From Escherichia phage ECBP1, in sequence record NC_018854.1: a stretch of 64,000 nucleotides of DNA, one strand, 5' to 3'. Positions 16,131-61,101 of the stretch are shown here, in pieces (positions within the stretch are counted from its first letter, which is position 1; the number at the start of each line of letters is the position of its first letter). The translations under genes and the position numbers were made by a program. The notes below the pieces were generated by a model. The model ran no database searches, had not been told where the DNA came from, and saw nothing but the letters and a program-made list of their open reading frames with translations.

Positions 16131-18698
16131 ATGTTAGTTGCAGATACCAACGAAATAGCTACCTCAGCGACACTGGGTGGCAAAGAAACAATTGCCTTTG
16201 GCATCTCAGATGACTCGGCATTCTTCCATGTATTAAGTACTTCCCTGTATAACAATCCTACTCTGGCAGTAGTTCGTGAGACTATATGTAACAGCTGGGA
16301 TGCTCATATTGAGGCAGGTAAAACTGATACCCCTATTCGTATCACCATTGATACAGACAACTTTATTACCTTCCGTGATTACGGTAGTGGTATTCCAGAT
16401 GAACTCATTGGTTCCATTTATGGTGTCTATGGTGCATCTACTAAGAAAGCCAACATTAGTGTTACTGGTGGCTTTGGTCTGGGATGTAAATCTCCATTCG
16501 CTTATACAGATAGCTTCCAGGTTACTTCATGGAACCAAGGAAAGATGTCTGTATATAACGTAGCTAAGGCTGCGATTGAGAATGATGGTAAGCCGGGTAT
16601 TGTCCCTATTGTTACCAATATACCTACTGAGGAATCCGGTCTGGAAGTTAAATTCCAGTTAGGCAAACATGATTTAAATACCTTTATTCATTACATCAAG
16701 TCAATCGTATTTAACGGTGAGATTAAAGCTGAGCTTAGTATCCCTAAACTCGTTAAAACAGAAGAAGGTAATAGTATTCAACAAGGTGACTACACTTTAC
16801 TGAATACGCTGGGCATGTCATTTGAACCTGGTTCATATGATATGTCTGATAGATGGTATCAGGGCTATATGGGTAGCAGTAACATATACGTTCGCTACGG
16901 TAATGTAATGTACCCAATTGTATCCAGCCCAGCTAGTGAAGAAGCTGTAGGTCTTATCCTCAACTTCATGAATATTATTGGTGCTGGCAATTTAGTAGTT
17001 CAGGCTGCACCAGACACCTTAGCTATTGCTCCTAGTCGAGAAACACTGTCTAACCAGAAGTTAACCGACGATGGTATTACTACTCTATGCGTAGATTTAG
17101 TAGACCGTATGGAGAAAGAGATTAAGGCTAAGATTCCTGAAGCCATTAAGCAGGTTGAAGAATATGCCTCTAAATCCTCTACTCGCTTTTGGGAATATCC
17201 ATCTTTCTTGGGTGCTGTTACAGATAGAACTGTTCAACGCTATATGTCTTCTAGTTTATGGACTAAACAACGTAAGCATCACATAAAGCACTGGCGTAAC
17301 TTATCCAATAAGGCGTTATTAGCTCGTCCTGAATATGCAGGTCTTAAGAAGCTGTATGGTAAGGCTATGCATGCTCTTAAGGATACTCGTGAGGAAAGTA
17401 CATACTCCCCATTCTCAGAATTAGTATATCGCCATCTGCATTTACCTCGGCTTGCTGCTTTAAAAACCTCTGGTATTAAGTGGTCTGGTTACATAATGAA
17501 TCAAGGCAACCGTGTTGACTTGGTAAAAGGTAAACTTACTGACTACTTTAGGATATACAATAACTCTCACCAAAGTATTGGCATATTTACTACCAAGAAC
17601 GTTGTAGTTACCCGACGTTTATCTGACTGTGCAGACTCTTTCTCATACTTCCCTGAATACAATCGAGGTGACCTGGAGCGTACAGCTTTTGTTCATGTCG
17701 TTGGTCCTAAGAAAGGTGCAGCAGAGGAAGCTGTAGCTAAGTTCACTGCTATGGGTTATCGGGTGATTGACCTTACTCAATATAATGAGTGGGACAAACC
17801 AACTAACTTCCGCAGGGAACAAGCTAAGATAGCTGCTGAGAAACGAGCCAAGACAATAGCTGCCAATAAAACCAAAGCAGGTGGTAAAACCAATGCTCTG
17901 ATTTCATTGAATGCAGTTCTTGGTGCTACCCAGGTACGTAATAAAAATGGGGATTGGGAACCCAGGCCGTATATTCAGAAAGAATTTGCTGACCCAAGTC
18001 GTCATGAGAAATATGGTTTCGTTGAGATAGAACAGCCTAAGTACTACGTACTAGCCAATCAGGTTGGTTCTGGTAGTCCTGTAACTGCTCGAATTGGAAC
18101 CATGTGGAAATGGTATGAGTTGCCTGATGAGATGAAAGCAGAGACTGTTGTCTGTCGTAATCAAATCGAAGCTAACAAGGCCAAACGACGAGGTGCTATC
18201 CACATTGATGATGTTCGCTTTAGTGAATTGATGTCTGTTATTACCAGCAAAGGCTTCAAGAAATATGTTACTGAACATCGCATCGGTATTCTTGAATACG
18301 TAGGACTGGATGACAGGGAATACTGGGAAATTCTAGACATACTGGGTCTAACCTTCAAACCCTTACAGAATCTGATTTTCAAACCAGAGTATGAATGGGC
18401 ATATGACTTTTTACGAAATCGACCACACGACAACAAAGAAAAACTTGTTGAAATGGGTTGTATTAAGTCAGTTGATGACTTAGAGCCATATGTAAAACTG
18501 GTTAATCCCCGTAACCATAAGTACTTTAAAGTACTTAATGATTACAAAGAATTATTCAGTTATAGCTGGAATAAAAATGACATCCTACAGACGCTGGACT
18601 TAGGTAGTTTGGTCAAACACCTTAAGAAGAATCCAGAGGATATTCCTGGGTTTAAGTCCCTCTACCGTAATCGTCTAAATAAACTGAAAGGTAACTAA
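16131..18698 (+). CDS. rIIA: rIIA-like protein with N-terminal GHKL-type ATPase fold
   Basis: N-box-like ICNSWDA and G1-box-like DYGSGIP; large protein before an rIIB-sized partner. Confidence 0.5.
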   Translation: MLVADTNEIATSATLGGKETIAFGISDDSAFFHVLSTSLYNNPTLAVVRETICNSWDAHIEAGKTDTPIRITIDTDNFITFRDYGSGIPDELIGSIYGVYGASTKKANISVTGGFGLGCKSPFAYTDSFQVTSWNQGKMSVYNVAKAAIENDGKPGIVPIVTNIPTEESGLEVKFQLGKHDLNTFIHYIKSIVFNGEIKAELSIPKLVKTEEGNSIQQGDYTLLNTLGMSFEPGSYDMSDRWYQGYMGSSNIYVRYGNVMYPIVSSPASEEAVGLILNFMNIIGAGNLVVQAAPDTLAIAPSRETLSNQKLTDDGITTLCVDLVDRMEKEIKAKIPEAIKQVEEYASKSSTRFWEYPSFLGAVTDRTVQRYMSSSLWTKQRKHHIKHWRNLSNKALLARPEYAGLKKLYGKAMHALKDTREESTYSPFSELVYRHLHLPRLAALKTSGIKWSGYIMNQGNRVDLVKGKLTDYFRIYNNSHQSIGIFTTKNVVVTRRLSDCADSFSYFPEYNRGDLERTAFVHVVGPKKGAAEEAVAKFTAMGYRVIDLTQYNEWDKPTNFRREQAKIAAEKRAKTIAANKTKAGGKTNALISLNAVLGATQVRNKNGDWEPRPYIQKEFADPSRHEKYGFVEIEQPKYYVLANQVGSGSPVTARIGTMWKWYELPDEMKAETVVCRNQIEANKAKRRGAIHIDDVRFSELMSVITSKGFKKYVTEHRIGILEYVGLDDREYWEILDILGLTFKPLQNLIFKPEYEWAYDFLRNRPHDNKEKLVEMGCIKSVDDLEPYVKLVNPRNHKYFKVLNDYKELFSYSWNKNDILQTLDLGSLVKHLKKNPEDIPGFKSLYRNRLNKLKGN

Positions 18699-36535: not shown

Positions 36536-36542
36536 AAATAAA

Positions 36543-36571
36543 AGCCCCTCATTAGAGGGGCTTTTTCATTT
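36543..36571. terminator. bidirectional intrinsic terminator between the converging plus and minus blocks
   Basis: agcccctc-atta-gaggggct with an A-tract upstream and T-tract downstream. Confidence 0.65.
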
Positions 36572-47300: not shown

Positions 47301-47341
47301 ACTTATATCGTATAAGAAGATTCACTGTACAGTAAGTGAAT

Positions 47342-47368
47342 GTAAGAGAAAAGCCCCGGATGGGGCTT
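47342..47368 (-). terminator. hairpin terminator/attenuator upstream of the vRNAP gene
   Basis: aagcccc-ggat-ggggctt; on the minus strand followed by ttttctctt. Confidence 0.45.
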
Positions 47369-47385
47369 TATTAGTATGTAAGATT

Positions 47386-49344: not shown

Positions 49345-49809
49345 TTAACGAGTTAGCTTATTAGCTGCAATGTAAGCATCAGCTGAAGACTGGTCACGGT
49401 TCTCTGCAACAGCACGACTACGAGCACGGTCTTCCAGTGCAGTGTTATAAGACTTAATCTGGTTGTTCAGGTTAGTGTTAGTAACACTCTTAGCAAAGTT
49501 CAACTGGTCTTTGGCTAACTTATTGGCCTGGAAACCACTATAGATACCAGCTAAGGAACCAAGTGCACCGAGTCCTAGTTGGAAGGTGGGTACATTCATA
49601 CCCAACTGATTAGCTGAACCAGACAAGAAGGAAGTAGGGGAGGCTACTCCTGTACCTGCATTCATACCAATAGCTGCACCCGGATTGTAGTTCATAGCTG
49701 GGGTATTAAAATTCTGATTGTTATTAGACATCCAAGACATAGCAGCTGGCTGTGGGGTTTGGTTGCCTGTTAAGAATGACAAATCCATAGGGATTCTCCT
49801 GTTAAACAA
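49345..49809 (-). CDS. small virion protein (N4 gp52-like by position and size)
   Basis: 154 aa; N/Q/G-rich. Confidence 0.45.
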   Translation of the reverse strand: MFNRRIPMDLSFLTGNQTPQPAAMSWMSNNNQNFNTPAMNYNPGAAIGMNAGTGVASPTSFLSGSANQLGMNVPTFQLGLGALGSLAGIYSGFQANKLAKDQLNFAKSVTNTNLNNQIKSYNTALEDRARSRAVAENRDQSSADAYIAANKLTR

Positions 49810-52456
49810 GGTCAGTATTAAGAGTCATATCAGAGTAGCTTCCAATCATGTTTAAAGACATGTCAGCTATATCCGAACCAGTCATGAGAGTACGTGAGAG
49901 GAAAGAATCCATCGACTCCATTGACACAAATTGCATAGGGTCAATTACACCCTGCCCAGCAGTACCAAACATCTCTTCATACTGCTTATTGATTGCCATC
50001 ATATCAGTATTGTACTGCTGCATTACTTTCTCTGCTTTCTGAATAGTAGCAGCCGTAGATGCATTAATATACTGGCTAATACCATTACCTACTGAACTGG
50101 TAAGCTGCATGATGTTCTGAGCATTCATCATTTCACTGGCTAAGGTAGATAAGGATGAACCAGTAGATAGAGCAGTACCAACATTCATAGCTACCATTGA
50201 AGCAACAGCAGTAATGATAAAACCTAGCTTATCACCAAAGAGTGAAGTGGATACTTTAGTGATAATAGATACCAGAATCATTGCAGCAATGGCGTTTGCT
50301 ACAGCACCTACTATTACAGCAGCTAATCCAACAAAACCGAGTGACGCCCCAACTGCTCCATATGCCCCAAGTATACCTGCACCACCAGTACCCATAGTGA
50401 ATACGGATACAACGACAGCAACCACAACAACCACAATCTTAAAGGCAGATGTTTGATACCACTTCTGCTTAACCTTCTTATATGAGTTCATCACTAAGTA
50501 GGAGCAGGCAGTGGATAGCTGAGTACTTCGAATCAGTGACATTGAACGATAGATGTTAGTATGTAGTGGAATAATGAACCCACTCTCCTCTGCATCACCC
50601 ATTGCTTCGGCAACATCAATATGCACTGACTTATTCTTATATACCCTGTTATTGTGATTTAGACCCAGTACTCTAAGTTTACGGTAAGTGTTATTACCAT
50701 CCTGCCAAAGCAGTTCATACTCCTGCATAGAATAGAATGTAGTGGTAACCTCTAACTTCTTAGCTGAACCGGAGTTACTAGCAGTTCGTATGTTCTTGCG
50801 AGTAAGAGTTATATCCCCTGCATACCTGGCTCGAAGTTGTCCTTGCTTAGCACCAGACCATGCTTGCCCTGAGTGGGTAGTTTCAGATACGTAATTCCAA
50901 CCAATGGTCATGTCATACTTGTAATGCTTATTACTATGTACCCTAAATTCTCTCTTAGGTATGACTGGGTATTCTGGCAGTGGTGGAGGAGTTCCAATAG
51001 TGTGCCCTTCAGTCCTATTCCACCATTCTACATATGCATCAACTGCATCATTAGCTGCCTGATAACCTGCAATCACTGCCTCCAAGGTTGGATAGGTTGG
51101 GTCAGGTGGGAATGCTTCAGTAGCCATCTGAAAGAAACGGTAGATGTATTCCTTAGCAGTATCTTCAGGAGTATTAAGAGATACGCCAAATGTGCCATAA
51201 ATGTACTGAATATCACCTATATCATCATTCTTCTTAAGCTCTGTTACTACCTTATCAATTTTTCCACCGGTAGCTTTATAAAGAGCTTTCTTACAGTATG
51301 GATAGATTGGGTCATTCTCTACCCATTGTTTATCGTTCCTGATTGGAATAAATGGATAGAATCGATTATCGGTAGCCTCAGTATCGAACAGTGAGTCTAG
51401 TGCAACGTTACCAGAGTTCTGCTTATAGATAAGCATCTTAGGTGTACCAACAGCAGTCATCTCTGTATCTGTACGAGTAGTCTGGGAGGAATACTTACGA
51501 ACCAGTGTCTCTGTGGTTGTAGTAATTGTATCAGTACGAGTAACACCACCACCTATATCAACTACGTTGGTAGTTACAGTAGTGCTGGATTGAATCTCAC
51601 CAAACTTTTTATGAGTCATTACCCTGTCAGATACAACTACAGTTACATCATCGGGTTTCTCAGTGAATCCTTTACGGTAAACCTTAACGTAAGAGTTCCA
51701 GTTATCCACACTTGGTTCAGTGACAGTATTGTCTTCATCTGGTCTACCATCAGAGTAAACAGAGTGAGTATGTATGGTCTTAGTAAGGTTAGTTGTATTA
51801 GCTGTTGTATCACTTGATATGGTAGTCCATAGCAAAGTGGAAGGTAAGTCACCCTCACTATCATAGACAGTAGTCGGTCCTACTACCGGTGGATTGGTAG
51901 AGGGAGATTTATAGAAAGAGTAATCAGCATAGAGATACAAAGCACCTGGTTCAAAGTTAGTAGGTGTGAATTTAATAGTAGAACCACCATCCAGGGAGGT
52001 CATAGTAATTTCATTAGTATCTTCATTGATGTCTATGTCGAATCGTTCCATGATTCGACTAGGAGCATTTTCATAAAGATATTGGGCACACCATTGCTCA
52101 AAGTCAGCAAAGCCAATTTCTGCTGCCTGAACATAGACAGACTCTCCAGCAGGTGGTGTAATTTGACCCTCTATAACAGTAGGGTCAATCTTAGCCAATA
52201 CACCCAACGAAGAACCAGCCATACCAACTTCTGAATCATAGTGGTTCTTACTCCAGCTGGAGAACAATCGCATACGAATACCAGGTCCATTCAGATAACT
52301 ATCAGAGATAGTGTCTGCCATAGTGAATCCTGTATTGGAAACAATGTTACCGATGACTACAGTCTTCATATAGTTAGGACGTTTGTGTATATCCCCTGCC
52401 ATGTTATAGACAGAGGATGCTACGTATACTTTAGTCTTCCCACTGAATAAGCCCAT
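49802..52456 (-). CDS. large virion protein with C-terminal Gly/Ala/Val-rich hydrophobic region
   Basis: 884 aa; VVVVVAVVVSVFTMGTGGAGILGAYGAVGASLGFVGLAAVIVGAVANAIAAMILVSIITK. Confidence 0.5.
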   Translation of the reverse strand: MGLFSGKTKVYVASSVYNMAGDIHKRPNYMKTVVIGNIVSNTGFTMADTISDSYLNGPGIRMRLFSSWSKNHYDSEVGMAGSSLGVLAKIDPTVIEGQITPPAGESVYVQAAEIGFADFEQWCAQYLYENAPSRIMERFDIDINEDTNEITMTSLDGGSTIKFTPTNFEPGALYLYADYSFYKSPSTNPPVVGPTTVYDSEGDLPSTLLWTTISSDTTANTTNLTKTIHTHSVYSDGRPDEDNTVTEPSVDNWNSYVKVYRKGFTEKPDDVTVVVSDRVMTHKKFGEIQSSTTVTTNVVDIGGGVTRTDTITTTTETLVRKYSSQTTRTDTEMTAVGTPKMLIYKQNSGNVALDSLFDTEATDNRFYPFIPIRNDKQWVENDPIYPYCKKALYKATGGKIDKVVTELKKNDDIGDIQYIYGTFGVSLNTPEDTAKEYIYRFFQMATEAFPPDPTYPTLEAVIAGYQAANDAVDAYVEWWNRTEGHTIGTPPPLPEYPVIPKREFRVHSNKHYKYDMTIGWNYVSETTHSGQAWSGAKQGQLRARYAGDITLTRKNIRTASNSGSAKKLEVTTTFYSMQEYELLWQDGNNTYRKLRVLGLNHNNRVYKNKSVHIDVAEAMGDAEESGFIIPLHTNIYRSMSLIRSTQLSTACSYLVMNSYKKVKQKWYQTSAFKIVVVVVAVVVSVFTMGTGGAGILGAYGAVGASLGFVGLAAVIVGAVANAIAAMILVSIITKVSTSLFGDKLGFIITAVASMVAMNVGTALSTGSSLSTLASEMMNAQNIMQLTSSVGNGISQYINASTAATIQKAEKVMQQYNTDMMAINKQYEEMFGTAGQGVIDPMQFVSMESMDSFLSRTLMTGSDIADMSLNMIGSYSDMTLNTDLV

Positions 52457-52457
52457 A

Positions 52458-53300
52458 TTAGTTCAGCCCGTTGTTAGTCTTCAGCTTGGTCAAAATGGTA
52501 TCAATACTTGCGTTAGTGAAACCATTAGGAGGATTCAAGCCTTCATCAATAGTCTTCTGTGTAATCCATGCATCAGTAAACAACTTAGATGCTTTGACTT
52601 CTGCATCACGTTGGTAAGAAGTAATCTGTTGAGAGTACAACTCTTTCTGTTTACCTACAGAACCAGTAACAGTAGCACCATCACTACGAGTATCCAGTGT
52701 CTGTGCACGTTGTGCTTCTGTCTGCTCAGTAAGCAATTTAAGCTGTTGAGGTAACATCTGATTAGCATTAAACAATGCAGCACAATACGTCTCAGACTCA
52801 GTAGCAATCTTCATCTTAGTAAGAGCGTATTCACTCTTAGCAGACAATGCCTGAATCTTAGCCAGTACAAACTGAGCCTTAGAAGTAGCCAGTTGAACAC
52901 GAGCAGTAACTGCCTGAATCTGTGCCATAGCAGCAGCCCAGTATGCCTGGTCACGTCCAAGTAAGAACTGAACAGCATTACTCATGCATGATTCCATCAT
53001 AGCAATGTATGCTTTGGTATATTCACCACCAGTAATACGGTTAGCTTTAAACTCAGCTTTAAGGTGATTGTGAGCAGATTCCATTAATGCATCAAACGTA
53101 CCACTGCCTCCTACTTCACGGGTAGTAAGAGATTCATTGGTTATTTTAGTAATAGCCCCAAAGATTGGAGAATCATCTCCACCAGGGATATCCCATTCAG
53201 GACCAGACATATCAATATCAGGAAGGGTAAAGTCATCACCCTTAGTTAACTCTTCTAGGAGTCGGTTAGCTTCTACCTCAGCAGAACAAGACATAATCAT
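52458..53300 (-). CDS. virion structural protein
   Basis: 280 aa in the late operon. Confidence 0.45.
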
Positions 53301-53370
53301 TCCTCTTGGTTCAAAAAGAAACGGCCCACGGAGTTACCCCAGTGAGCCGTGTTGAACTGTAGCTTATACG

Positions 53371-54012
53371 TTAATCGTTAAGGCTACCAGCAGCAATCTG
53401 TGCTTGAGCCAGCTGAGCCAATTCAGCTTCAGTCAACGGAGGCAGTACTTCAATGGAGAACTCACGTGCTTCTGTTGCACGAATGTCCGGTAAGCCATTC
53501 TTACCTTTACGAGTAGTAATGTTAATGAACTTACGTTCTTTAAGGAACTCGTAGATACAGTACGGAATATGATAACCATTGTCGGTTACTTCACCGAACG
53601 GAACAAACTTACGTACAGTACCCATATATTCGTTAGCTACGGTGATAATTTCACCCGGCAGGTCTTTCTTCTTAGGGTCAAGGTTCTGGATACGTACACG
53701 AATCAGTCGAGTCTGTTCTGCACGAATCTTCTGACCCAGGGTCATCTTCTTAACACCAGCTTCCTGCTTAGCACCCAATGGGTTAACAGCAGCTTCTTCT
53801 ACTACTGGTTCATCTTTTACTTGTGCAGCTTCAATCTTCTCACGAAGCTTTTCAACGGAAATGTTGTTAGAGAACTTAATATTCATCAACGTTGCACGTT
53901 GCTTAAGAACTTCAAGTTCGCTAGGCATTGCAATATCGTTAACGGTATCTTCGTTGCCCTGTACGTTCACTTCTACGTCAGTGGTCGGTTTATCGTTAAT
54001 GCTCATGTTCAT
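53371..54012 (-). CDS. virion structural protein
   Basis: 213 aa immediately downstream of the capsid gene on the minus strand. Confidence 0.45.
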   Translation of the reverse strand: MNMSINDKPTTDVEVNVQGNEDTVNDIAMPSELEVLKQRATLMNIKFSNNISVEKLREKIEAAQVKDEPVVEEAAVNPLGAKQEAGVKKMTLGQKIRAEQTRLIRVRIQNLDPKKKDLPGEIITVANEYMGTVRKFVPFGEVTDNGYHIPYCIYEFLKERKFINITTRKGKNGLPDIRATEAREFSIEVLPPLTEAELAQLAQAQIAAGSLND

Positions 54013-54079
54013 ATTTCCTGTGGTTCATTTAGTTTTATTAAGAGGGGGACTTATGTCCCCCTTGTTTTATTTCGGACTA

Positions 54080-55282
54080 TTACAGAGGAGCAACAGTCTT
54101 AATCAGAGCCAGACGTTCTGGACGTTTAACCAGGATACCATAGTACCACTTGATAGAACTGAAGCCAGTTTCGCCATACGGGTCATTACGGTCAGCAGTT
54201 TCTTTACCCGGCATCTTAGTCATGATGGTGAACTTAACAGACTTACCATCAGTCTGGAAGCCAATGGTAGAGAAGGAGTCATCACCAACTACCAGCATCG
54301 GGAATACGTCGTAGTGTTCCTGACCAGATACCATAGAGGTACGGTAACCCGGGTTAGTAGTAACCTGAGCACCAGCACCTGCCCAATGCAGCATCTCTGG
54401 AACCTGGATGATACGGAACTTATCAATACAACCAATTTCACCATTCATCAGAGTACCAGCATCAGCATAGTGCTGAACTTCGATGAATGCTTTATTACCA
54501 AACAGGTCTTTCATCGCTTTCAGTTCTGGAACCAGTTCAGAACCAACGTACATTACACGAGTACCACCGAGTACTTTGGTATCTGTCAGTTTAGAACCAG
54601 TGATGATAGTAGTCTGGGTCGGGGTACGGTTCTCAGTAAGAATCTGGTCAAGACGCATCAGGTTCTTATAAGAAACTACAGACGGGGTAGAACCTTCACC
54701 AGTAATGGTAGCATCAGAGACGGCAGCACCTGCATACAGTACAGTACCAGCAGCAGCCAGCAGGTCTTTCTGGAGAACAGCTTCAGTCAACTGTACAGCA
54801 CCGTTCATCAGTTCACGAGACAGGTGTTCTTTCAGTTGGTCATCAGAATCAAAGTCCAGGGACTCTTGAGTAAATTCGTAGAAGAAGCCGAATTTATGAA
54901 TAGAGCCTTCACGAGCCAGACGAGTAAAGCCTACACGGTTAACACGACCACCATTCTCTGACAGCAGAGGCAGTTTAGAAGTGATGTTACCAACGTCTTT
55001 GGAAGAGCCATAAAGGTTACCGTTAACGATGGTAGCACCATTAGCATCAATACCCTGGTCGTTAATGTTCTTATCGTCGAGCAAAGGAACATACTCGTAC
55101 ACCTTAACAGTCTTACCGTAGTTCTTCGGCATGTTAACGGTGTTAGCCAGAGGCATAAAATACTGGTCTTTACGAGACTGAATAATAGCCTTCTTCAGCC
55201 AGTAATAGGTATTCATCTGGTCGGAACCAGCACCATCAATGCTAGATTTCTGACCGTCAATTGGAGCGTTATAGTTTAACAT
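54080..55282 (-). CDS. major capsid protein (by size and synteny)
   Basis: 400 aa, matching N4 major capsid size as recalled; follows an acidic scaffold-like gene. Confidence 0.6.
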
Positions 55283-55298
55283 ATCATCTCATTCCTGT

Positions 55299-56519
55299 TT
55301 AAAGACTACCCGGTACTGGGAGTTTAGCGAAATCTTCATCACTCATAGCGAGTGGGTTTACAATAGGCGTTGCTTTACGTGTAGCAGCCCGATTAAGGGA
55401 AGCTGCTTTAGCTTGCTCACTGTTAGCCAGAGTCTGCTTAGGTTGTGCTACACGCACTACCGGCTGAACTGCTGGTTTAACTGCTTGTACTGGTTCAGGC
55501 TTAGACACTTGGTTAAATGCTCCCTGCTGTGCAAGAAGGTTACCAACGTAGTTATAAGCCTGAATAAACGGAGTACCTACCGGAATCTGACCTAACACCT
55601 GAAGACGATTCACTTCATTAGCAATGGTGTCATAAATACCATTCTCACGCTGTTCGTGAATGGTGTGGAGTAAGCCACGATTCTGATAAAGAGCATCTTT
55701 ACTGGCAGCATCCCATGTCGAGCTAATAACACCTAATGTAGCTTGTCCTTCTTGAGTAGACTTTAAGTCGTCAATTTCGGTTGCAAAATCTGCTTCGGTG
55801 TCTGTAACACGGTGTTTGCCACCCTGGTAGTTAATTTCCTCTTCCGGATTAAAGTCCAGAGGATCTGTACCAGAGTCTTTCAACAACTTTTTAATGGCTT
55901 CAGGATTCTTCTTATCCAGGTCAATCAGGAAAGAAAGTTTTTCCTCATCCATTAAACCGTTGTTCTGTAACATCAGCATTACCTTACGGTACGGCTGAAG
56001 TTCTTGCATCTTACGAGTATAGTTAGCACCCATCTGCATCAGGCTAATGGCCTCCTCCGGTGAACGGGGAGTAATCATTTTGCCGTTAGCTTTAAAAGGA
56101 GCCATCAACTTCTCATAACCTTCCTTATAGTTGAAGTCAGCAGGCAGACCTTCAGACTGTTTGCCTTCTTCTTTCTGTTCCTGGCCTGGTTCAGCAGTAG
56201 AAGGTTCAGCTTCAGTAATCGGCTTACCGTTACTATCAACTTCTGTGTCAACAACTTTATCATCAACTTTATCAGAAGTTAAAGAATTTGCTGAATCATC
56301 TTCATCTGCGTCAGTTTCGGGGGAGGTTTCTTCGGTTGGTAGGTCTTCAACAGCAGGGGTGTCAATTTCTTCATCAGGAGTCTGTACGCCATTGGTTTCT
56401 GGGTTGTTCTGAGTGGAAGTATCTTCCTCAGCAATAATAGCTGGGGCTTCCATATTCAGAATCTCATCATCCGACATTGCGAGAATGTCGGAAGCTGTGG
56501 TTGCAGCTTCCGTAGTCAT
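55299..56519 (-). CDS. acidic scaffold-like/assembly protein
   Basis: 406 aa with highly acidic N-terminal third; between portal and capsid. Confidence 0.45.
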   Translation of the reverse strand: MTTEAATTASDILAMSDDEILNMEAPAIIAEEDTSTQNNPETNGVQTPDEEIDTPAVEDLPTEETSPETDADEDDSANSLTSDKVDDKVVDTEVDSNGKPITEAEPSTAEPGQEQKEEGKQSEGLPADFNYKEGYEKLMAPFKANGKMITPRSPEEAISLMQMGANYTRKMQELQPYRKVMLMLQNNGLMDEEKLSFLIDLDKKNPEAIKKLLKDSGTDPLDFNPEEEINYQGGKHRVTDTEADFATEIDDLKSTQEGQATLGVISSTWDAASKDALYQNRGLLHTIHEQRENGIYDTIANEVNRLQVLGQIPVGTPFIQAYNYVGNLLAQQGAFNQVSKPEPVQAVKPAVQPVVRVAQPKQTLANSEQAKAASLNRAATRKATPIVNPLAMSDEDFAKLPVPGSL

Positions 56520-56538: not shown

Positions 56539-56883
56539 TTATTCGTCTTCGGGTTCAGCACGAACTGCATCGAGTTCTTCTTCTACCTGAAGAATAACGT
56601 CAGCTTCATTTTCACCCATACGAATGGCGAGGTCGAGCCAACGACGTAAGTGACCAGCAGCTTGAGCCATGTTAAGTGCATCTGCACGGTTATTCGGTTC
56701 AAGCAGTGGGTCACCAGACTCCTGCACGTAACGTGCACAATCTTCTACACAGAACTGTCGAAGGATTACTTTACGGAACAGTGGATTCTCCAGAAGTTTA
56801 CGTACATCCTCTGCGTGTGCAACTGCACCTTTAGCAGCTTCCAGTCGATGTTCCAGTCCTGCGATTGTTGATTCTTTACTCAT
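56539..56883 (-). CDS. hypothetical virion assembly protein
   Basis: 114 aa between portal and scaffold-like genes. Confidence 0.4.
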   Translation of the reverse strand: MSKESTIAGLEHRLEAAKGAVAHAEDVRKLLENPLFRKVILRQFCVEDCARYVQESGDPLLEPNNRADALNMAQAAGHLRRWLDLAIRMGENEADVILQVEEELDAVRAEPEDE

Positions 56884-56896
56884 GTGAAGGTCTGCC

Positions 56897-59167
56897 TTAT
56901 AAGTTCATACCAAGAGCCGATGCTGGGTCTTGGCTAGGGTCATAAAATTGGGAACTAAGAGAATAAGTCGGGTCTTGCTGTGCAGCTAAGTCACGTTCCT
57001 GTAAAGAGTTCCCGTTAGTCAAAGCGTTATATCCGACAGCAGCAGATATGTTGGGGGTAGTTTCACCTTCTTTAGTAGGTGTTGTCAACGCCTTAGTTAT
57101 TTGAAGGTTCTGGTTTCCTTGAGATTGTGCTTTTTGTTTTTCCATATCACGAGCATGTTTAGTACCAGATTCCTGTTCCAGATAATCCAGGTCTTTAAGG
57201 TCACCACTAGAAATAGCTTCTTTAGCCTTAGCATTATTGAGTGCAATCTTACTTTTCAACTCTTCATTCTCAAGCTGTGCTTTTTGAATTGCCAATTGCT
57301 TAAGCTGTTCTTCCATAGGGTCTGGTTGTGGTCGCCAGGTACGTAATTCATGAGCAAGGTCTGGCATACGCTTAAGTTCTGCAATTTTAGCTACGAGAGA
57401 TAATGTAATAGTCTGGTCAACTGTATTACCTAACGTTTGAACCATGAAGCTCAAGTCCTGAGATTTCTGGTTATCAATTTCAGCAGTATTAATATCAACC
57501 TCAATATCGAAATTACCTTTAAGGTCTTCACGGTTAATTTCTACGTACTGTTCATTGGTAATACGTACTACTTCCTTCTCAGATAAGAATACGGCATTCA
57601 TTGCACAAATCTTAGTACCAATGTCTGCCATACCCTTAGCTAATCGACGAAGGATTGCCATCTCACGTTTGGATGCTGCATCGAGTGCACCACGAATACC
57701 AGCAGCCACATCTCCATAAGCTGCACCAGTTACACCTCCAGAGAATGCTTTAACACCAGTTAGTGCTTCTGCTTCCTGGTTCTGCATCTGAGTCATAACT
57801 ATTGCCGACTGAGGTAACTCAGGGAACTTATGTTCCATAATGGCCTGACTAGGGTTGCCCTGCATTGGGTTATACTCATAGTCTTGTCCGTCATCATATC
57901 GACGTCGGTTCAGAGTATCTAACATCCCTTTAGGATAACCACGCTGCCCGTTTGCACTTCGACCTAACAGGTCAATCATCCCACGCATAGTTGCACCAAG
58001 AATTGCTTGGTTATCTCCTAACAATTCTGCATCTGCTTCACCGTAGAGTTCACGTTTACGTGGCATGTATGGAACAACTACCAAAGGTAACTTACCATCA
58101 GGGAATGGGTTCTTCTCCATACGAATAAGAGTAGAACCAATCCAGGTAGCAACAATCGGTTCCAGTGAACCATCATCATTAATGTCGTAAAATCCCCAGT
58201 ATTCATAAGCGACTACTTTCTTACGTAGTGCATCTTTAAACTGGAAGTCACCAGGAGTTTTACTTTCATGGTCTGGGTCAGTCATAGGACTGGAACTTTC
58301 CCAGTCAATCTTATCCAAATTGTGATAACGGTCTTTGTTCTTCATGAGGTCTGCTTTGCACGTCTCAAACGAGATAACTGCATACAGAGCCTTGTCCAAA
58401 TCACCATTACAACTCGGGTCAATAACTACGTTATTAGGATTAAGCATTTCAACAGTAGGTCTGTTAACCAGTGCCTTCTCTACCTCTACCTCAGTAACTC
58501 CAGTCTGGATTGCATAAGTAGCTTCTCCAGTTTCATTGAAGTAGTTAACAGCTTCCTTAATATCTTCCGGCATTGTTTCGTCATACTCACGGGGATTTTC
58601 TGCCTGAAGCTGTAAAGCCTGCTGAAGAATATCTGCTTGTTCCTGGTTCTCAATTGGATACAACTGGAAGACTGGTGTTTCTGTTTTAATCTTAACGGTC
58701 TTACGTTCCCAACCAATACGGGCAATACCAGTACCATCATCTACGACACTATGTACGTAATCATCCACCAGTTTTACTTTATTAAGCTGGGTACGGAATT
58801 GGTAGTTAAGAACTAATTCATTCTGTCGTGCAGCTAACTCATCCTCAAAAGTAACAGGGGTTACCTTAAAGAGTTTATTAGATGAGAGAAATGGTTCAGA
58901 TAATGGTGCATAACGCCACTCTGCCTGACGGCGAACCAGTCTAGGTTGGACTTGTGAGCGTCCTTTAACCTTTGGGGGTTTAGCCTTGCCTTTGACTTCC
59001 ATCAAGTCATTCCACTCACGAATCTGAGCCATGATTGCATCGTGAGCAGGTTTAGCTGATTCCAAATCACCCTTCAGTAATTGGATACTTGGTTCCTTCT
59101 TCCAGTCCGTTAACTTCTCTGATTGAGCCGGGTCTGGTAAAGGCTTAAAAGTGTCTTGGTGTTCCAT
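56897..59167 (-). CDS. portal protein (by size and synteny)
   Basis: 756 aa; sits between the lysis cassette and the capsid module. Confidence 0.6.
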
Positions 59168-60856: not shown

Positions 60857-61068
60857 AAAATTACCGTAGTGATGTAGTTAGATTCCCCAACAGGGCCATA
60901 TCATAAGATGACTCTTAGATAATACTTAGTATGATGGGATACATCCAGACATAGTGTCTGGTAGCAACCCATGGTGGATGGTATTCAGTTAGGTATGTTT
61001 AACATATCCGGGCAAGTAATTACCCTAACAGCAGTATCGGTTAGGGTAATGCAAACAGTAACTCTATA

Positions 61069-61092
61069 TAAGAAAAGGCCCAAACTGGGCCT
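61069..61092 (-). terminator. intrinsic terminator after the tail gene
   Basis: Minus strand reads ggccc-agttt-gggcc followed by ttttctt. Confidence 0.5.
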
Positions 61093-61101
61093 TAGTTTTA
61101 A

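Follow-up and report, generated by a model that had tools for sequence, protein, structure and literature searches.

A conserved terminator-type hairpin, probably leaky, downstream of the major capsid gene of the N4-like phage ECBP1

In Escherichia phage ECBP1, the gene encoding the major capsid protein (MCP) is followed by a perfect hairpin that we regard, with a probability of about 60%, as a leaky and probably bidirectional element of the intrinsic-terminator type, forming or protecting the 3' end of the capsid mRNA. The first-pass annotation of the window, a stretch of 64,000 nucleotides of ECBP1 DNA (NC_018854.1), had proposed a partial terminator at this site that boosts capsid transcripts over those of the downstream genes. 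This proposal draws support from the position of the hairpin, from terminator T56 at the orthologous site of phage LUZ7, from the presumed use of the host polymerase and from the apparent need for read-through into the next gene.

Results

Genomic context

The 2-kb stretch around the hairpin shares 99.9% identity with Escherichia phage Bp4, 93 to 97% with G7C-like phages (Schitoviridae, Enquatrovirinae, Gamaleyavirus), and about 83% with phage N4. By sequence comparison, the window is that of an N4-like coliphage of the genus Gamaleyavirus. ECBP1 (at 60857-61101) lacks about 536 bp present in Bp4 (16558-17338) between the gp63-like and tailspike genes and is therefore a close relative of Bp4 but not Bp4 itself. 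The segment missing from ECBP1 encodes the plus-strand hypothetical gene orf14 in Bp4.

The late genes are encoded on the minus strand and follow the N4 gene order. The portal gene gp59 (56897-59167; Pfam SU10_portal) is followed by gp58 (56539-56883) and gp57 (55299-56519), both assigned by gene order, and by gp56 (54080-55282), which encodes the 400-amino-acid MCP. The assignment of this upstream gene to the capsid, made in the first-pass annotation, is confirmed by matches to Pfam Phage_capsid_4 (E = 1.6e-8) and to the PHROG major head protein (E = 6e-151) and by orthology to N4 gp56. Further downstream are a gp55-like gene (53371-54012), which matches a PHROG of unknown function, and, by gene order, gp54 (52458-53300) and gp53 and onward (49802-52456 and beyond). 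No Pfam match was obtained for gp55; neither gp55 nor gp57 has a relative of solved structure, and the literature on their function was uninformative.

The gp56 stop codon TAA (54080-54082) is followed by an in-frame TAG, and the gap from this stop to the first ATG of the gp55 open reading frame spans 54013-54079. This mechanically assigned ATG at 54012 directly abuts the Shine-Dalgarno sequence AGGAAA (54013-54018). The real start of gp55 is probably the in-frame ATG at 54006 (MSINDKP...), since it gives AGGAAA a normal spacing and agrees with the annotation of N4 and Bp4.

Two further features were observed in this region. The motif TGAACCA(A/C)AG(A)GGAA occurs on the minus strand upstream of the gp55 and gp54 start codons (54013-54027 and 53301-53313) as well as in many relatives' loci; a similar motif, UUUUUGAACAGGAA, precedes the portal gene, and in relatives the post-capsid hairpin has a lower stem formed by GAACCAAGG...CCUUGGUUC. 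Because GAACCA is a very common hexamer in the ECBP1 genome, this motif is left as an aside. A perfect 9-bp hairpin, CGGAAGCUG-CAACCA-CAGCUUCCG (56489-56512, minus strand), starts within the gp57 reading frame, 7 nt from its beginning, and could modulate initiation of gp57 translation.

Structure of the post-capsid hairpin

Inspection of the sequence, RNAfold, and a scan for perfect hairpins all identified the minus-strand hairpin A-GGGGGAC-AUAA-GUCCCCC-U at 54043-54062. Its stem comprises eight perfect base pairs including the closing A-U pair, six of them G-C, and encloses the 4-nt loop AUAA (54051-54054). In full, the minus strand reads ...CUG UAA UAG UCCGAAAUAAAACA-A GGGGGAC AUAA GUCCCCC U-CUUAAUAAAACUAAAUGAACCACAGGAAAUAUGAACAUG. 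The first-pass annotation had located the hairpin within the correct interval but parsed it inaccurately as ggggga-cataa-gtcccccc; the loop has 4 nt rather than 5, and the 3' arm contains five C rather than six.

The hairpin alone has a free energy of -15.3 kcal/mol, and it is both the minimum free energy and the centroid structure in an RNAfold prediction of the surrounding 91-nt region (-19.8 kcal/mol; z = -2.82; 0/200 shuffles fold as well). It starts 17 nt past the gp56 stop codon and ends about 24 nt ahead of the gp55 Shine-Dalgarno sequence, which is unpaired in the fold. The stem is G-C-rich and the single-stranded flanks are AU-rich. Both the stem-loop dimensions and the location 3' of a stop codon agree with those of intrinsic terminators (stem of about 5 to 14 bp, loop of 3 to 8 nt). 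An Rfam search of 53200-54300 on both strands yielded no match with an E value of up to 1. The hairpin is excluded as an RNase III processing site: T7-type sites need a duplex of some 20 bp or longer, commonly interrupted by an internal loop, whereas its stem has only 8 bp and its flanks show no extended pairing.

Tails on the two strands

On the gene strand, the hairpin is followed by the degenerate U-tract CUUAAUAAAACU (54031-54042, minus strand), as judged from sequence and tail score. Including the closing U, this tail reads UCUUAAUA and contains four U in eight positions, one below the at least five in eight directly 3' of the stem that define a U-tract; it is broken after UCUU, so that by consensus the hairpin is an incomplete ('I-shaped') terminator on this strand. 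The "weak T-tract" of the first-pass annotation was thus described correctly (UCUUAAUAAA, four U in ten). A consensus terminator scan of the minus strand called nothing at the hairpin. Standard predictors miss the site in Gamaleyavirus genomes: the ARNold-based annotation of PhAPEC7, which carries an identical hairpin, marks only the terminator after gp55, and the Bp4 record annotates neither of the two.

On the other side of the stem (54063-54073), the sense strand carries a run rich in A, which on the plus strand becomes a T-rich one (GTTTTATTTC). Here, the scan called a plus-strand terminator consisting of GAGGGGGACTTATGTCCCCCTT and GTTTTATTTC, with nine pairs and a complete consensus. In the plus-strand reading, GAGGGGGAC-UUAU-GUCCCCCUU is followed by GUUUUAUUUC. 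The opposite strand thus has a good U-tract (UUGUUUUAUUUC), unlike the sense strand (UCUUAAUA), which the first-pass annotation had overlooked; its presence in the genus Gamaleyavirus is a mildly new point. Tail scores were 1.98 in the sense and 3.68 in the antisense orientation, compared with 3.2 to 5.1 for the functional terminators of ECBP1 and 0.25 to 2.9 for their reverse, non-functional orientations. As this score is sensitive to the first base and reaches only about 2.4 (hand calculation) for the clearly canonical terminator after gp55, U counts are given alongside. We expect termination in the sense direction to be low to moderate and predict that it would rise sharply if UCUUAAUA were repaired to UUUUUUUA.

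Enrichment and selection

Perfect hairpins of at least 7 bp with at least five G-C pairs are about 9-fold enriched in the window, which has 22 entries (about 15 sites), whereas dinucleotide shuffles give 2.4 +/- 2.0. With few exceptions, they are intergenic and located just after genes, and three large gaps in the late block (47301-47385, 53301-53370, and 54013-54079) contain one hairpin each. The intergenic hairpins of the late region at 47350 and 61075 have T-rich tails on both sides; the former (47350-47369) lies between gp51 and the gene for the 3,576-amino-acid virion RNA polymerase. An 11-bp bidirectional terminator was observed at 36540-36565, exactly where the plus-strand (early/middle) and minus-strand (late) blocks converge.

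The 16 stem positions are the same in nine Gamaleyavirus sequences, as opposed to variation at 135 of 400 third-codon positions (34%) in the adjacent MCP gene, which gives a probability of about 0.001 for an invariant stem. In the same nine sequences, all four loop positions vary, against 7/47 in the rest of the spacer. Five loop forms occur at 54051-54054 (ATAA, GTAA, TTAT, TAAT, and TAGT) among phages that are 93 to 99% identical around the loop. Of these forms, ATAA is the exact inversion of TTAT, and the stem never changes. Such variation points to a free loop or, alternatively, to template-switch mutation associated with the hairpin. A fixed stem combined with a free loop is, in this comparison, the pattern of selection on pairing and not on sequence.

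Conservation of the hairpin among relatives

From IMG/VR, 70 loci carrying the capsid protein (at least about 65% identical) were fetched, representing 55 distinct downstream sequences. In all 55, a hairpin with a free energy between -13 and -33 kcal/mol lies no more than 25 nt from the MCP stop; when the 60-nt windows of each locus are ranked by perfect stem, this hairpin is among the top 2% in 53 cases. The rank test replaced a free-energy comparison of the best hairpin of up to 50 nt with random coding windows, which proved to be a poor control (control mean, -12.9; observed, -21.1 kcal/mol). Ten more distant Schitoviridae (Pollock, EK8, CB4, Ruegeria V17, Acinetobacter At2, Vibrio JA-1, SBP1, 1.261.O, Salmonella As2, and KpCHEMY26) likewise have a hairpin at this site, mostly with a textbook U-tract. 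Together with LUZ7, a strong hairpin occupies the same place, 0 to 25 nt past the MCP stop, in all 66 distinct relatives' loci, a count that overstates independence, as do the 55/55 result and the Wilcoxon P value given below, because the sequences are phylogenetically related. The gene order around the hairpin, a gp56-like gene followed by a gp55-like gene, is the same in the relatives, including N4, and the record of the N4-like phage Jura annotates a terminator in the post-capsid gap. The presence of a post-capsid hairpin in all Schitoviridae examined appears to be a mildly new point.

The stems are wholly different between genera (GGGGGAC/GUCCCCC, GGGGAGG/CCUCCCC, GGGAAGGGG/CCCCUUCCC, and GAACCAAGGGG/CCCCUUGGUUC). 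In N4, GGGGGAGG-GAAA-CCUCCCC is followed by UUACUUUAU. Frequent tetraloops in the relatives are of the GNRA type (GAAA, GUAA) or UUCG. A MAFFT alignment of the spacers moved the N4 hairpin by one column, and a second alignment shifted 9 of 34 apical 20-mers; pair types were therefore counted on loop-anchored 20-mers. Pairing is maintained at all eight apical pair positions through four to six pair types, which, as the 20-mers were selected for pairing, demonstrates sequence turnover and is not an unbiased covariation test. The purine-rich 5' arm (86% versus 13%) was rejected as strand-specific evidence, because the arms of a perfect inverted repeat read identically on either strand.

Contigs unrelated to N4-like phages also carry these arms: exact copies of AAGGGGGAC/GTCCCCCTC were found in about 60 IMG/VR contigs, mostly with CGAA or TTTC loops (corresponding to UUCG or GAAA in one of the two orientations), and the T-tract usually lies on a single side. 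The GGGGGAC/GUCCCCC stem is a generic terminator stem that has been widely reused.

The orthologous terminator of LUZ7

In the N4-like Pseudomonas phage LUZ7, orf79 (major head gene) and orf78 (gp55-like gene) are separated by a gap containing GGGGAGG-GAAA-CCUCCCC-UUUUUU. The minus-strand terminator T56 maps exactly to this orthologous hairpin, with a termination efficiency of 0.65 at 20 min (PMC9163698; bioRxiv 10.1101/2022.03.18.484859, Tables S2-S4). T56 was classified as intrinsic by TransTermHP and ARNold and leaves a 3' untranslated region of 35 nt after orf79 (PMC9163698). The validated late promoter PL23, inside the gp57-like gene, gives rise to TU70, a monocistronic MCP mRNA ending at T56, and to TU71, a read-through RNA that adds orf78 (PMC9163698). 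On the plus strand, T57 maps to the same hairpin with an efficiency of 0.39 to 0.44 despite having no U-tract, and it ends the 214-nt TU69 that starts at the antisense site PL22 inside orf78 (PMC9163698). More than 60% of the LUZ7 termination sites are leaky, which the authors liken to T7 (PMC9163698). The 3' ends determined by ONT-cappable-seq do not separate termination from processing, so that the 65% may include trimmed ends.

A second terminator after gp55

Downstream of gp55, a canonical intrinsic terminator, CGGCUCAC-UGGGGUAACUCC-GUGGGCCG followed by UUUCUUUUUG, is located at 53312-53349 on the minus strand; it was recognized from sequence and is annotated in PhAPEC7 (by ARNold) and in Jura. 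Phages of several genera (N4, KP8-like, and Achromobacter phages) share its stem sequence, and this terminator likely represents the strong end of the MCP-gp55 transcription unit. Since gp55 starts about 35 nt past the post-capsid hairpin, which leaves no room for a promoter, its transcription would need read-through of the hairpin.

In the 51 distinct loci in which both sites could be scored, the post-capsid tails are U-poor (mean of 3.9 U in 9; at least 6 U in 7/51, with U underestimated in a few loci where it was absorbed into the predicted stem), whereas the post-gp55 tails are U-rich (mean of 6.2 U in 9; at least 6 U in 37/51). A paired Wilcoxon test supports the difference (P = 2e-5), with the reservation that these related sequences are not independent samples. 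Among the closer relatives sampled, the combination of a leaky post-capsid hairpin with a full stop behind gp55 is thus a recurring design, which is also mildly new.

Discussion

How the hairpin might act can be outlined from N4. N4 late genes are transcribed by the host sigma70 RNA polymerase, activated by N4SSB (PMC4496689), and host-type intrinsic terminators are therefore the relevant signals. If the same applies to ECBP1, the host enzyme would transcribe gp57-gp56 on the minus strand late in infection; a scan for promoters upstream of the MCP gene found nothing above chance. The 8-bp hairpin would form in the nascent RNA 17 nt beyond the capsid stop, and a fraction of the polymerases would be released. 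Transcripts ended or cut further downstream may be trimmed back to the hairpin, which would block 3' exonucleases, and the hairpin-capped capsid mRNA would accumulate above the mRNA for gp55 and beyond. The remaining polymerases would run through gp55 to the canonical terminator at 53312-53349. Given the degenerate tail in the sense direction (UCUUAAUA), the efficiency of true termination probably falls well short of the 65% of LUZ7. Conversely, the good U-tract on the opposite strand makes an antisense stop probable: the same hairpin probably also stops plus-strand antisense transcripts before they reach the capsid gene, as its LUZ7 orthologue does.

Part or all of the effect may be exerted through protection of the 3' end, with weak true termination. 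A pure mRNA-stability element, at which termination is negligible, is a possible reading to which we give limited credence. Transcripts would then end after gp55, or RNase E would cut the AU-rich spacer, and the hairpin would block 3'-to-5' exonucleases, so that the capsid segment outlives the gp55 segment, as with intercistronic REP and puf-type stabilizers. The degenerate sense U-tract is consistent with this, as are the perfect, G-C-rich stem flanked by AU-rich single strands and the generally U-poor post-MCP tails of close relatives, in which the next terminator is canonical. The apparent efficiency of 39 to 44% at LUZ7 T57, which has no U-tract, moreover indicates that 3' ends defined by a hairpin alone accumulate in vivo. 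However, four U are still present in the first eight tail positions of ECBP1, and in distant family members and LUZ7 the site has a textbook U-tract, is predicted as an intrinsic terminator and, in LUZ7, was measured as one. The presence of a U-tract terminator at the same position in these phages indicates that termination is the ancestral or general role, and the two mechanisms are not exclusive. We consider it doubtful that the Gamaleyavirus terminator has switched polarity, losing the sense U-tract and gaining an antisense one, so that it would act as an antisense shield and exonuclease stop and the effective end of the unit would have moved to the terminator after gp55. That the hairpin is mainly an antisense terminator, with any sense effect incidental, is unlikely. 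It would stop plus-strand RNAs before the capsid gene, be they spurious or regulatory antisense RNAs from within gp55 or read-through from the early/middle block. The sole canonical U-tract (GTTTTATTTC) and the called 9-bp terminator are indeed on the plus strand, the plus-strand tail, at 3.68, scores like those of the functional ECBP1 terminators, unrelated contigs with the same stem often have their T-tract on the equivalent side, the hairpins at 47350 and 61075 are also T-rich on both sides, and in LUZ7 an antisense RNA from the gp55-like gene (PL22, TU69) ends at the hairpin (T57). Yet the late block has no plus-strand genes, the long plus-strand open reading frames upstream are unconserved shadow frames with no family matches, and a plus-strand promoter scan in gp55 gave nothing convincing (best match, 8/12 to consensus, not above chance). 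Part of the A-rich stretch reflects the stop codons and the AT-rich spacer. Outside Gamaleyavirus, the antisense tail is U-poor and at least 12 lineages have sense U-tracts, which argues for a family-level constraint on the sense orientation.

A signal acting at the DNA level, such as a promoter hairpin of the type used by the N4 virion RNA polymerase or another cruciform, is highly improbable. The promoter hairpins of this polymerase have a short stem of 5 to 7 bp and a 3-nt loop. In PMC4496689, extruded DNA hairpins are described as early promoters of N4-like phages, which lie upstream of early genes and are contacted at the -11 purine, -10G, -8G, and +1C. The exact inversion of the loop between close relatives (ATAA versus TTAT) is a change typical of DNA hairpins. 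Against this stand the 4-nt loop of free sequence in ECBP1, the location at a gene 3' end in the late block, and the U-tract and mapped RNA 3' end that follow the hairpin in relatives; in a search with the core of the N4 P2 promoter, the only match was at chance level. Owing to the size and free sequence of its loop, its late position, and the absence of the motif, the hairpin was rejected as a promoter of this kind. A chance inverted repeat without function is similarly very unlikely. The stem is short, and one or two 8-bp repeats of this kind would be expected per 64 kb, but its invariance against a synonymous background that is 34% variable, the freely varying loop, the universal occurrence of a hairpin at this site with compensatory sequence turnover in the family, and the experimentally observed activity of the LUZ7 orthologue all speak against chance.

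We thus favor the leaky terminator-type hairpin, an ordinary and known kind of gene-dosage signal. It would explain how an N4-like phage relying on the host RNA polymerase makes far more mRNA for its capsid protein than for the neighbors without a dedicated polymerase. The data are also compatible with a broader reading, in which the U-poor hairpin after the MCP gene and the U-rich terminator after gp55 form a conserved module of many N4-like phages that is tuned to set a ratio. Annotation and phage engineering may benefit from the comparative result. The finding opens no new question, considering that placing a terminator behind a capsid gene is an established design and that the LUZ7 orthologue has already been measured.

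The closest known counterpart is the hairpin of LUZ7 T56 and T57, which lies at the same position between the gp56-like and gp55-like genes and is likewise a G-rich/C-rich tetraloop hairpin. Stem and loop differ, with GGGGAGG-GAAA-CCUCCCC in LUZ7 and N4 and GGGGGAC-AUAA-GUCCCCC in ECBP1. At T56, transcription stops in part (65%) and otherwise runs on into the gp55-like gene, and by analogy we propose the same role for the ECBP1 hairpin. LUZ7 has a perfect UUUUUU tail on the sense strand and no antisense U-tract, whereas ECBP1 has a degenerate sense tail and a good antisense U-tract. LUZ7 furthermore lacks a canonical terminator directly after the gp55-like gene, its next termination site being the non-intrinsic T55, 172 nt downstream, whereas ECBP1 has one.

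A strong terminator just after the capsid gene has been described for T7 and LUZ100 (PMC10134795). As with T7 T-phi, located after gene 10, a local terminator follows the structural gene whose product is most needed, and an incomplete stop balances downstream expression (PMC10134795, PMC9163698). These phages employ their own single-subunit RNA polymerases and strong terminators with full U-tracts; the ECBP1 element would in contrast act on the host enzyme and is weak by sequence criteria. With canonical bacterial intrinsic (Rho-independent) terminators, including bidirectional ones, it shares a G-C-rich stem of 7 to 8 bp, a tetraloop, and an intergenic location after a stop codon. It also resembles the REP hairpins of malEFG and the hairpins of the puf operon, stable stem-loops that lack a U-tract, cap the more strongly expressed upstream cistron at its 3' end, and bring about differential mRNA abundance. 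However, the ECBP1 hairpin bears no sequence relationship to these elements and is present as a single copy, and its relatives show descent from true terminators.
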